64,000 nucleotides of DNA from a virus (taxonomy: Duplodnaviria > Heunggongvirae > Uroviricota > Caudoviricetes): IMG/VR virus record IMGVR_UViG_3300025000_000063, positions 64,001 through 128,000 of that record; one strand, written 5' to 3'. The notes beneath the pieces were generated by a model that was given only the letters and a program-made list of their open reading frames with translations, was not told the origin of the DNA and searched no databases. A program made the translations under genes and the position numbers. This document shows, piece after piece, positions 1,335 to 4,434 of this stretch; positions within the stretch are counted from its first letter, which is position 1; each line of letters opens with the position of its first letter.

Positions 1335-1691
1335 TTATGGTAATACACGCTTAGTTATATTGGATTCACCTTTAGATTGTTTTTTATACACAGCTACAAT
1401 CTCAGGAGATTTTAATAGTATTTCCCCAACATCTTCACCTGACTTGGCCTTTCTCCCTTTTATAAGTACAACGGTATCCCCAAAATAATACCCATTTTGA
1501 CCGCCAGCTATCACCCCAATATCTTTTAAAGCTTGCTCAATTTTATTCTTTTTTACTAATGCGGCACTGGTTCCCAGCAAATCAATATCTGTTTCATACC
1601 CATTCACCCATTTTTTTGACGGGCGCTGAATATCACCTATCTTTGGGGTGTAGCCAGCCTCTCCCGGGATAACCCGTAAACCATACACCAA
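1335..1691 (-). CDS. Unknown domain, possibly ADP-ribosyltransferase-like; in frame with the upstream ORF across a single TGA
   Basis: YGLRV / GTSA / GEDVGEILL resemble the R-S-E ART signature; same frame as 1779..2120 with 29 open codons between. Confidence 0.4.
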   Translation of the reverse strand: MVYGLRVIPGEAGYTPKIGDIQRPSKKWVNGYETDIDLLGTSAALVKKNKIEQALKDIGVIAGGQNGYYFGDTVVLIKGRKAKSGEDVGEILLKSPEIVAVYKKQSKGESNITKRVLP

Positions 1692-1778
1692 ACCATCCTT
1701 GGAGTCAACCCTACTATGGATGTCGTTAATAACTGCTTGGGTGTTATCGAAATCCTTCTTGCCATTTTTTTCTGCAAC

Positions 1779-2120
1779 TCAGGGAGTACCTCCTCCTCCG
1801 CCTGTTACTGATCCACCTCTCTTACCAGGCCTCCCCGCATGCCCGTAATGTCCACTGCCAGAGCCACCGAGTATGGACAGTTCTTCATTAGTCTCGTTGG
1901 CCATTACTTTTTTTGATGCTGTATCTTCCTCAAACACAATATCATTATCCTGGTCATCCCGGACTTCTAAATGCAATTCATCTCCGTATGCAATTTCTTC
2001 TGGTATTCCATCCGGGTATGCATCACATGCATTTACTTCCGTTTCTTCAGTTCCATCCGGCTGTTCTACCCTGATATTATGAATACAACCTCTTTTAAAA
2101 CAATTTGGTTCTTGTATCAT
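1779..2120 (-). CDS. Small Cys/His protein (C-x-A-Y-P-D-G-I-P family) ending in the Gly-rich tag shared with the portal
   Basis: CFKRGCIH...CDAYPDGIPEEI...LH...IVFE followed by LSILGGSGSGHYGHAGRPGKRGGS; RBS AGGGGGA. Confidence 0.75.
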   Translation of the reverse strand: MIQEPNCFKRGCIHNIRVEQPDGTEETEVNACDAYPDGIPEEIAYGDELHLEVRDDQDNDIVFEEDTASKKVMANETNEELSILGGSGSGHYGHAGRPGKRGGSVTGGGGGTP

Positions 2121-2145
2121 CTCGCTTCCCCCTACGCTATACGTG

Positions 2146-4434
2146 CTATTTTAAATTATTATCAAACCACTGTTCAATATTTTTAGGTAACGTTGTTCCT
2201 TTCCCAGTATTATAGTATGGAGAAGACCAGGCAGAAAAGGCTTCAGCAAAAGCTTCTGATGCATTAAGCGTTGCGTACCGGCTGACCCCAGAAAATGCAA
2301 CTTTTCCGTTATTATTATTTTTCCATACCTGAAGTATAAAAGCTGTTTTTATCTCTGGGCTTTTTGCTAAAACAGCGTGGCCAAATTCGTGCCGGACAGT
2401 AGCCATTGCCCCATTCCCCCCGACTGTATATGCTTTAGTACCCAAAACAAATGCCTTTGCAATGTCTTTTGAACCACCTTCTATTGGGATATGCAAGGTG
2501 TCTTCTTTTGGCCGGTATAGTCCCAGTGTCGTTCTTTTTTGCCCTTCTGAATTGGTGTATTTCACATGTGTCCCTTTTTCTAATACCAATTCAGTCGGTG
2601 GCCCCATATCATCCAATATATTTTTTAACCCAGGCCTACGGGATAAAACCTCTTCCATATGCGAATTTATTTCGTTTAACGCTTTGGCTGTTTTGGGGTC
2701 TTTTGTGCCTTGTTTAACAGACAAACCAACAAATTGATTTACGTCCTTTTCTGGCTTGGGTGGTTTTGACGCCACGGGTTTTACGGTGATGGTTGGTTTA
2801 TCCAATTTTGTAGTTCTGCTTACCCGTTTCGTTTGCTCTCCGGAGAGAGTGCTTTTCTCTTGCTTATCTGCCGGCTTGTCCGCAGATTTACCACTCCCTT
2901 TACTTCCAATGCTGCTGCCTCCAACCTTACCTGGCCTTCCTGCATGTCCATGGTTACCACTGCCAGACCCACCCAAAACGGATAAAAGATTGTCAGTAAC
3001 TTTATCAGGGTCAAGTTCTTCTGGTTCCGGGTTCATCTTTTCTTCCAATGCCTCAATCCCGCCTGCGTCCTCAATCTTCAGCATAATTTCTTTTACGGTA
3101 TCTTCCGGTAAAGAAATAATATCCCGGAAGAAGATTTCCAAAGGCAGAATATCAGTACCACCAGGAGCAGCCAAGTATTTACTCATGGCTTCCATCTTTG
3201 AAGAGCCTATTTCTGCAACTTCCTTTTCTCCCAAAGCAGACATCTTCGGCCACTCAACAATATATCCTCCCACTGGGTCTGGGATACTTTTGTGCTCAAT
3301 GAGGCTATCCACCAAAGGTCGGAGGATGCAAGGCTCGCAGAAGTTTACCATCCTATTATATAATAGTGAGTTCCATGCCTTTTCATCCTGTGAAGAAGCC
3401 AGTTCCCCTCTCTCGGACCCCATCAGTATTCTTTTAGGAATGCCAGTTGCAGCAGAGATCACATTAATTTGCACTTCCATTGCTTTTTCAGGGTCTGCAA
3501 TTGTGGTGGATAATTCCTGAATATCCATTCCACGGACACGCAGCCATCTCCTGAGGTTGTGATCGTATTCATCAAATTGGGTCTTTAAGTCCTCTTTATC
3601 CCCCGGGAGTAAAGTTGTGTCTTTATCCAGCTTTGCTACTCGCCCGGGAGACACGTTTTTCCAATAAGACTCAGCACTTCCCCCCAGAATCTTCTGGACG
3701 TCCTGTAACCGATTAAAAACCGACTGCATTCTGGGGGTTCCGTATATACTGGATTCCAGGGGGTCTTCCACAACATGGATCAACCGAGTATAATGACACT
3801 GGATGGTGATTGTCGTTAATGTCTTTTCCCTGTCAAAAGAACTCGTTTCATGGTTTACCTGGATTTGGTACATCACGGGCTTGCCAAATCTCTCGGAGGT
3901 TTTATCACTCTCAAATGAGGTGATGGTTGCTGAGTTGCAGGAATAAGGCTGCAAATATTTGATTTGTGCATTGGGCTGCACCGGCTGGGAAAAGTCCAGG
4001 TTGTCATCAAATCCCAGGAGTAACACAGCATAATCCCCCAAACCCAGGAGTTTATCCAAGCGATTCAGGATGCTGTAAAGCTTAAATTGCTTGGCAAAAG
4101 CATCGTATTCCTTTTCAAAGGGTGATTCATCCGTGCCTGTTTCGTCTTTTAATTGGGGCTTATTCGCCCAGCAGCCATTTACTACTTTATCAATGACGAC
4201 TTTGCCCAAATCCTCCCGCTGGTACTGAAGGTAATAATCCTGGAAAGTAAGTTGTTTCTTGTACCCAAGGACTTGGTAAAGGTTTCTGGCCCCTCCGAAT
4301 GTAACCCCCAATTCAAAAGCGAACTGCATCCGGGCCATAAGGATGCTATTATTTGTTAATTGCTGCTGCAATACCTGGATCTGCTGCTGGGGGTCAGGTT
4401 CAGGGGCAGGTAAATTCTTTCGGTTTACTTTCAT
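2146..4434 (-). CDS. Portal protein (DUF1073/T1-type) fused to a C-terminal HEXXH zinc metallopeptidase domain
   Basis: Lies after terL; portal motifs RNLYQVLGY, SIYGTPRMQSVFNRL, AATGIPKRILMGSERGELASSQD; extension with HEFGH and SRYATLNASEAFAEAF. Confidence 0.88.
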   Translation of the reverse strand: MKVNRKNLPAPEPDPQQQIQVLQQQLTNNSILMARMQFAFELGVTFGGARNLYQVLGYKKQLTFQDYYLQYQREDLGKVVIDKVVNGCWANKPQLKDETGTDESPFEKEYDAFAKQFKLYSILNRLDKLLGLGDYAVLLLGFDDNLDFSQPVQPNAQIKYLQPYSCNSATITSFESDKTSERFGKPVMYQIQVNHETSSFDREKTLTTITIQCHYTRLIHVVEDPLESSIYGTPRMQSVFNRLQDVQKILGGSAESYWKNVSPGRVAKLDKDTTLLPGDKEDLKTQFDEYDHNLRRWLRVRGMDIQELSTTIADPEKAMEVQINVISAATGIPKRILMGSERGELASSQDEKAWNSLLYNRMVNFCEPCILRPLVDSLIEHKSIPDPVGGYIVEWPKMSALGEKEVAEIGSSKMEAMSKYLAAPGGTDILPLEIFFRDIISLPEDTVKEIMLKIEDAGGIEALEEKMNPEPEELDPDKVTDNLLSVLGGSGSGNHGHAGRPGKVGGSSIGSKGSGKSADKPADKQEKSTLSGEQTKRVSRTTKLDKPTITVKPVASKPPKPEKDVNQFVGLSVKQGTKDPKTAKALNEINSHMEEVLSRRPGLKNILDDMGPPTELVLEKGTHVKYTNSEGQKRTTLGLYRPKEDTLHIPIEGGSKDIAKAFVLGTKAYTVGGNGAMATVRHEFGHAVLAKSPEIKTAFILQVWKNNNNGKVAFSGVSRYATLNASEAFAEAFSAWSSPYYNTGKGTTLPKNIEQWFDNNLK

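Follow-up and report, generated by a model that had tools for sequence, protein, structure and literature searches.

A glycine-rich peptide heads presumed capsid-cargo modules on two head-module proteins, the portal among them, of an uncultured tailed phage

The portal protein and a second head-module protein of an uncultured tailed phage share a glycine-rich peptide of 24 residues, hereafter the tag, which on the evidence of its sequence and setting can be described with good confidence as a conserved header of presumed capsid-cargo modules. The stretch of DNA analysed here, called the window, comprises 64,000 nucleotides (positions 64,001 to 128,000 of IMG/VR record IMGVR_UViG_3300025000_000063) and is part of a single 137,054-bp contig from groundwater metagenomes. 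Its head module lies on the minus strand in the order small terminase (terS), large terminase (terL), portal, a gene that we call X, MuF, a DUF2213 scaffold-like gene and an HK97-fold capsid protein. The portal unites a virion anchor and an effector-type domain in one polypeptide within this portal-terminase module: a 483-residue core is followed by the first copy of the tag and by a 255-residue extension, a layout proposed in an earlier note on this DNA and borne out by the translation and by a Phage_portal_3 match. Gene X holds the second copy, between a small N-terminal domain (X_N) and a downstream domain (X_C) that is separated from it by an in-frame TGA (Table 1).

How phages choose, load and release the proteins that they inject is poorly understood, and we know of no general signal for such proteins outside T4 and a few models. 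The tag is widespread and apparently undescribed. Thousands of presumed cargo modules of uncultured phages bear it, among them ADP-ribosyltransferases (ARTs), zeta-like kinases, 2H phosphoesterases, NUDIX hydrolases, topoisomerases and peptidases; the tag is a simple, testable element and offers a sequence handle for listing injected effectors from metagenomes. What is new here is a comparison with a close relative that provides direct evidence, at the level of DNA sequence, of module exchange at the tag. Such exchange would explain the turnover of effector repertoires between near-identical phages.

Sequence, spread and carriers of the tag

The two tags of the window agree in 20 of 24 residues and share only 48 of 72 bases: nine codons are identical, 11 differ synonymously and four non-synonymously. 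With differences that are mostly synonymous, their likeness appears to be held at the protein level rather than to stem from a recent DNA duplication, and the synonymous divergence asserted by the earlier note is confirmed. No copy besides these two was found in the 137,054-bp genome. At least 115 IMG/VR loci matched a DNA pattern that specified only GHAGRPGxxGG; the counts of tags given below rest on the matches listed. Requiring only S and G at positions 0 and +1 kept 139 of these matches (133 unique), in which the flanking positions left unspecified by the pattern are still nearly invariant: glycine is found at position -4 in 100% of unique instances and at -3 and -1 in 96% each, serine at +15 in 99%. 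This degree of conservation outside the searched positions indicates that the tag is more than a chance match. The consensus reads (K/L)GG-x-GSG-(N/H)(F/H/W)-GHAGRPG-x-(V/R)-GGS and continues into a run of Gly, Ser, Ala and Pro. Up to eight copies occur within 12.5 kb.

A profile built from 47 instances (profile A3) was scored against 1.84 billion cluster representatives. It matched 6,586 clusters at E<=1e-3, 1,214 at E<=1e-10 and 200 at E<=1e-30, with up to ten matched stretches in a single protein. Among 134 distinct DNA versions of the tag, all synonymous codons are used at every invariant residue, including both serine and both arginine codon families; the versions average 65% DNA identity between loci and 76% within them, against a peptide identity of 85-93%. 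Because synonymous codons are scrambled while the residues stay invariant, selection appears to act on the tag peptide and not on its DNA. Diverged tags (for example G020, 39684-41333, and G022, 50556-51146) turn GRPG into GVPG, GIPG, GVLG or GVKG and keep the GG-x-GSG...GH-x-G...GGS frame of Gly, Ser and His; they can help to tell which positions of the tag are important.

Collections of described sequences returned little. No PDB chain matched the tag profile at E<=10, no PHROG family matched five tag peptides at E<=1, and tag motif strings were found nowhere in the searched literature. A tblastn search of the tag against GenBank phages gave no match, low-complexity masking being the probable cause. 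A pattern scan of GTDB genomes found the full motif in none of at least 120 loci listed, a result that carries no statement on absence from cellular genomes; these loci, mostly in high-GC genomes, were taken for chance matches to the short pattern. Single-protein scans of IMG/VR for close relatives found nothing for the portal or for X_C, and word-index protein searches returned only three tag matches for the whole of gene X and, for the portal tag region, only itself.

Tags that lack both downstream cargo and linkage to a head module would have told against the earlier note. What we found is a module behind nearly every tag: at least 103 in-frame codons follow 113 of the 116 tags whose downstream stop lies inside the locus. 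One of the three tags that have no module (L013:2898-3956, plus strand) stands at the extreme C-terminus of its protein, with a TGA three codons on and then 42 open codons. About 40% of unique tags (50 of 124) are no more than 70 residues away from the stop before them; in roughly half of those 50 a possible start is found 8-25 residues upstream of the tag, in the rest it is nearer or farther, and many of the leaders have alternating hydrophobic residues. The other tags stand after an anchor (portal, MuF or DUF2213 scaffold) or between modules.

Pfam matches in the 58 longest tag ORFs comprise Phage_portal_3 (8), MuF (6), 2H (5 and 2), ADPrib_exo_Tox (4), DRAT (3), Zeta_toxin (3), ART-PolyVal, DUF2213, topoisomerase IB and NUDIX (2 each), ATLF and LPD1 (1 each), and others. 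Past the tag, Portal_3 cores carry an ART, a zeta toxin, 2H plus topoisomerase IB, NUDIX plus ART, or unknown domains. Tags of near-complete genomes mostly form one same-strand block by terL, MuF, scaffold or zincin genes; three of these genomes have them scattered over 34-65 kb. This domain catalogue and the profile search together uphold, across thousands of phage proteins, the idea put forward in the earlier note of a portable tag that joins head anchors to interchangeable, often toxin-like modules.

By their domain architecture, the tag carriers correspond to the phage-type polyvalent proteins, which were proposed to be packaged, injected and proteolytically processed (Iyer, Burroughs, Anand, de Souza and Aravind 2017, PMC5512222). 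Common to both are the setting in the head module and the combination of a portal or MuF anchor with ART, 2H, zeta-like kinase, NUDIX or zincin-like metallopeptidase (MPTase) domains. Polyvalent proteins have 2 to 15 effector domains per polypeptide, whereas the portal of the window has one and gene X at most one; relatives and other tag carriers have up to 9-10 tags per protein. The words 'glycine' and 'linker' are absent from the main text of Iyer et al. 2017, in which neither a module header nor an exchange joint is described.

Exchange of modules inside the tag

A close relative, L240 (JGI 3300009168), is 87-93% identical in DNA to the window over terL, portal, X_N and MuF. Its portal protein of 957 aa consists of the core, a first tag, a module of about 170 residues (a weak GNAT match, E 0.005, below the Pfam cut-off), a second tag preceded by the leader KKVTANETNEEI-LSVL, and finally the spacer and zincin known from the window. 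L240 positions 1903-3621 align with window positions 4633-2915, and L240 positions 4134-5188 with window positions 2987-1933, such that the two blocks overlap at window positions 2915-2987 and both L240 portal tags cover the one portal tag of the window. The DNA of this single tag resembles the first L240 tag up to about the NHGH codons and the second from the AGRPG codons on. The window portal tag is thus a chimera of the two portal tags of L240, the trace of a recombination between two tags that removed, or conversely added, the module between them. Its chimeric make-up shows that cargo modules have been exchanged by recombination within the tag itself.

Two further modules differ. The tag of gene X with its leader is 81% identical in DNA to the second L240 portal tag with its leader, and L240 lacks the whole stretch of tag, TGA and X_C (window positions about 1278-1932). 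The MuF protein of L240 has 596 aa, about 300 of which form a C-terminal addition with no Pfam match that is missing from the window. The window MuF, as the earlier note had stated, has no extension: it is 322 aa long and ends with the Phage_Mu_F domain. The view that cargo hangs on the tag rather than on MuF has to be given up, given the C-terminal extension of the L240 MuF and the MuF domain in six of the 58 long tag ORFs. Altogether, two phages that are about 90% identical differ in three cargo modules, two of the three junctions lying at tags; in this phage lineage, the tag serves as a joint for module exchange.

The comparison also bears on the K-V-x-x-N motif, which the earlier note regarded as a possible protease site in front of both tags. 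The motif is indeed present, as KVTDN and KVMAN, and is kept in L240; its distance to the tag differs between the copies. Across the 133 unrelated instances, no residue upstream of position -5 exceeds 24%, which speaks against a general protease site. K-V-x-x-N is a part of lineage-specific leaders.

Gene X is the product of an in-frame fusion of a leader-tag-module cassette to X_N, since X_N stands free upstream of leader-tag genes elsewhere and gene X keeps a cassette-type start, M73 in MANETNEELSIL-GG. The X_N family has about 38 homologues, mostly free-standing proteins 64-83 aa long, in which three Cys and one His are conserved. X_N is a standalone gene between portal and MuF in L240 (5001-5204), lies between a polyvalent MuF and the scaffold in L241 (6001-6201), an unrelated head module without any tag, and directly precedes leader-plus-tag cargo genes in L034 (twice) and in L093, where the tag is degenerate. 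X_N may be a small zinc-binding head protein. The domain, of about 67 aa, follows the pattern C-x4-C-x-H ... C-x-A-(F/Y)-P-(D/N)-G-I-P-x-E-I, and has portal, MuF or scaffold genes as neighbours; the head modules in which it occurs are of unrelated types, tagged or tagless.

The tag as a candidate signal for capsid cargo

We lean slightly towards the view that the tag is a signal by which proteins carried in the capsid are loaded and processed. A component of the assembling head would recognise it at the peptide level; a cut at or near the tag would probably set the modules free inside the head, from which they would leave with the DNA; and the in-frame joints used for module swapping would be a by-product of tag conservation. 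The C-terminus of the portal protein faces the capsid interior. Three features point to such a signal, read during head assembly and probably cut, more than to a mere linker: the tag has a fixed orientation, it often stands close to the N-terminus of free-standing genes, and selection acts on the peptide. A bolder version, put forward tentatively as we consider it rather unlikely, would make the tag a transferable signal for capsid cargo that is general among tailed phages, and whatever module stands behind it would be loaded, released and delivered with the DNA. Should it be true, the near-invariant tag would enable unrelated phages to swap effector modules in frame by recombining within it, and the tag would be the first broadly conserved protein-packaging signal of Caudoviricetes as well as a handle for loading chosen proteins into phage particles.

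Several points weigh against a loading and processing signal. No tag-bearing protein is known to be cleaved, packaged or ejected, and the tag appears in no PDB chain and no PHROG family. Three of the 116 tags listed, as well as the gene X tag as annotated, have no module behind them. It is hard to see how head proteins so unlike one another would all read one near-invariant signal of 20 residues, and no phage-encoded candidate reader that was checked is universal among near-complete tag-bearing genomes. Candidates were tested on the full records behind 29 tag-bearing loci, 13 of which are at least 90% complete: DUF2213 is present in six of the 29 records (four of the 13 near-complete ones), MuF in 12 (six), the zincin family of the window in six (four) and MPTase-PolyVal in none of either set. 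When the window genome and 12 near-complete genomes were compared all against all, a search of low power, no family occurred in more than six of them; what at first looked like a new shared family consists of diverged tags.

This lack of a universal partner among the candidates and genomes compared is what would be expected if no partner read the tag at all, its conservation serving module shuffling. The tag would then be a mere flexible linker and recombination joint, as its richness in glycine, its low-confidence structural model and the recombination inside the portal tag would allow. We nevertheless think this improbable: the amino acids are conserved over scrambled codons, with the gap between DNA and peptide identities reported above; generic linkers do not keep an invariant register of His, Ser and Gly; and some 40% of tags stand close to the N-terminal end of an ORF, a place that calls for no linker.

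One candidate reader is encoded by the portal gene itself. The portal extension is predicted to be an M34-like zincin metallopeptidase. It displays the M34 signature: HExxH, a downstream Glu as third zinc ligand and a Tyr at the catalytic position. The family was gathered from 12 loci among the IMG/VR matches listed, and in the resulting alignment of 15 sequences H682, E683, H686 and E727 are invariant and Y720 and E731 at least 90% conserved. With this family alignment, AlphaFold2 modelled portal residues 569-762 at pLDDT 80-90. The top 50 Foldseek hits in the PDB are mostly M34 peptidases (the catalytic domain of anthrax lethal factor (LF), Zmp1/PPEP-1); the matches are weak, with E-values of 1.5e-3 to 2.6e-2 and TM up to 0.55, and sequence identity is 14-19%. 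The Pfam ATLF model did not match the extension at E<=0.1, while Atlas features of the zincin led to ATLF, Peptidase_M90 and Mx1 clusters. Anthrax LF and Clostridioides difficile Zmp1/PPEP-1 share with it HExxH, Glu, Tyr and the closest predicted fold; unlike them, the zincin of the window is fused to a portal. An ART identity for X_C found no support in Pfam or PHROGs. The zincin may be a toxin or a processing enzyme.

As the sole recognisable peptidase in the head module of the window, this zincin could have the tag as its specific cleavage site, the portal peptidase freeing itself and then cutting the tag of gene X. It stands right behind a tag not only in the window but also in L034, L042, L062 and L102, and zincin-like MPTases have been proposed to process polyvalent proteins (Iyer et al. 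2017, PMC5512222). The distribution of the family speaks against it, the zincin being encoded in only six of the 29 tag-bearing records and MPTase-PolyVal in none. So does the AlphaFold2 model, in which tag and spacer are of low confidence and the tag is undocked from the zincin; nearly all of residues 1-98 of the construct (portal residues 470-567), tag included, have pLDDT <50. Predicted as a complex, the zincin domain and the peptide of the portal tag scored 0.01, which speaks neither for nor against binding. We hold it improbable that the tag is a site dedicated to this enzyme.

Least plausible is that the tag acts at ejection instead of loading, as a disordered threading end or as a weak DNA-binding element around its GRP core, which we take to resemble an AT-hook: the Gly-flanked G-R-P, the low-confidence model and the position on the N-terminal side of the module would suit such a role, but GRPG is mostly followed by E/Q and then by V, neither of them basic, and diverged tags in complete genomes swap R-P for V-P, I-P, V-L or V-K with the frame kept, which argues against an AT-hook-like role, or a cut after Arg, as the general function.

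A loading and processing signal can be set beside several known systems. The capsid targeting sequence of T4, found on internal proteins IPI-III and on Alt, is a poorly conserved leader that is cut by the T4 prohead protease at Leu/Ile-x-Glu. Like it, the tag is short and N-terminal to the cargo, and about 40% of tags lie near the ORF N-terminus, usually after a leader that ranges from a few residues to about 25; unlike it, the tag is near invariant across phages whose head genes are unrelated, occurs also internally and in repeats, and has no known protease. The demarcation motifs of polymorphic toxins, VENN in CdiA and PxxxxDPxGL in Rhs, are likewise short conserved peptides at the boundary of a constant and a variable part, where recombination swaps the toxin. 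The tag differs from them in its sequence, in its presumed route through the capsid, in being repeated within proteins and in standing also near the N-terminus of free-standing genes. Encapsulin cargo-loading peptides, which bind the inside of the shell, are C-terminal on their cargo, whereas 113 of the 116 tags listed precede their module, which sets the tag apart from that class. The MuF polymorphic toxins combine a shared head-protein N-terminus with a variable, toxin-like C-terminus, and related phages swap such modules with one another (Jamet et al. 2017, PMC5576092). They carry the extension on MuF, while the anchors in the window are the portal and the small X_N, with MuF unextended. 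No junction, glycine-rich or linker motif is mentioned by Jamet et al. 2017. MuF toxins have a cognate immunity gene; none turned up in the window, in which no search for immunity genes was made.

The stop codon of gene X and the surrounding genes

The earlier note described the second tag as followed in frame by an unrelated domain. The frame is indeed shared, but a TGA that the note had overlooked intervenes; past this TGA, the frame stays open for 147 codons (1338-1778). X_C matches PHROG 18666, a family of unknown function, with an E-value of 7.7e-8 (profile positions 5-129 of 130 on residues 14-132), and is 30% identical to a standalone protein of 130 aa that a Mu-like Mannheimia phage encodes in its early region. 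Phrog_18666 was its only family match, and an Atlas lead to DUF3846/DUF5880 scored 0.89, under the trust level. A single-sequence fold of the read-through gene X was unusable (pLDDT 37).

An assembly error at the TGA was discarded: the same codon stands in two other assemblies, L237 and L238, and in four runs whose contigs have 22-289x depth; a single groundwater study is the source of them all. Global recoding of TGA was likewise rejected, as TGA ends 11 of the 49 long ORFs of the window, with only short extensions behind it, and the genome has no tRNA gene.

Gene X has probably been hit by a nonsense mutation in the recent past, whether or not translation starts again at GTG 1688. Gene callers predict a 117-aa product from this GTG, and AAGGA precedes both TTG 1691 and GTG 1688, making a truncated product of this size possible. 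Homology of X_C to its relatives begins 14 codons after the TGA, that is 16-17 codons before the first possible start, the first TTG and GTG lying 30-31 codons past the TGA; an intact X_C domain would therefore need translation through the TGA. Low-level leaky read-through of the UGA is less likely, though still worth considering. It is similarly doubtful that the TGA is a programmed leaky stop, which would yield abundant X_N-tag and rare X_N-tag-cargo protein and so set the copy number of the cargo, as with the read-through A1 protein of Q-beta. Gene X has in common with A1 the in-frame UGA and an open frame encoding a domain whose homology precedes any start; the 147 open codons, the TGA as consensus in four samples at up to 288x, and the 113 of 116 listed tags that elsewhere run straight into their module are in keeping with a programmed stop. 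On the other side, there is neither a suppressor tRNA nor a stable RNA structure downstream of the TGA (z = +0.64), the codon after the TGA starts with G, and the AAGGA allows a separate 117-aa product. The searches made found no relative carrying X_C in which the stop could be compared, and the assemblies share a single study.

Table 1. Features of the tag-bearing genes and of the head module around them (window positions unless stated otherwise)
Feature	Position	Strand	Remarks
Portal ORF	2146-4434	-	762 aa; core, tag and 255-aa extension
Portal core	2986-4434	-	residues 1-483; Phage_portal_3 E 3.1e-30 (residues 70-418); PHROG 146 portal E 3.8e-63
Tag copy 1	2914-2985	-	portal residues 484-507, LSVLGGSGSGNHGHAGRPGKVGGS, from translation; 255 residues follow
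Spacer	2731-2913	-	about residues 508-568; Lys/Pro/Ser-rich; AlphaFold2 pLDDT <50
Zincin-like metallopeptidase domain (predicted)	2149-2730	-	about residues 569-762; HEFGH at 2377-2391; Tyr720 and Glu727/Glu731 downstream
Gene X ORF up to TGA	1782-2120	-	tag at residues 81-104
X_N	1923-2120	-	gene X residues 1-66; small Cys/His-containing head-module domain, from homologue search
Leader and tag copy 2	1809-1904	-	leader from internal ATG (M73, 1902-1904); tag at 1809-1880, residues 81-104, LSILGGSGSGHYGHAGRPGKRGGS
In-frame TGA stop	1779-1781	-	nine codons past tag copy 2, between Gly linker and downstream domain
X_C	1335-1778	-	in frame with tag copy 2; phrog_18666-like domain; possible internal starts TTG 1691 and GTG 1688
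MuF head-morphogenesis gene	348-1316	-	322 aa; Phage_Mu_F E 9.7e-16 (residues 207-313); no tag or extension
DUF6527 protein	4652-4957	-	101 aa; CPGC motif; between terL and portal
Cys-rich ORF	4961-5185	-	74 aa; between terL and portal
terL	5179-6801	-	head module
terS	6761-7513	-	250 aa; Terminase_2 the sole Pfam match
Major capsid protein	genome 60903-61967 (L236:6904-7968), 2033-3097 bases before window start	-	DUF6260 E 2.6e-22; weaker Linocin_M18 E 9.3e-7

Past the start of the window, the head module continues with a 483-aa DUF2213 protein, a 165-aa ORF and the HK97-fold capsid protein. The likeness of the capsid protein to Linocin_M18, the encapsulin family, reflects the shared HK97 fold only. 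The DUF2213 family includes gp24 of Pseudomonas phage Pa193, a putative scaffolding protein that stays at the five-fold vertices (PMC11456595), for which reason the DUF2213 protein was dropped as a candidate prohead protease. At the other end of the module, the small-terminase product of L240 (L240:1-312, a gene that runs off the end of the locus) has matches to T5orf172/MUG113, a GIY-YIG-like nuclease, besides Terminase_2.

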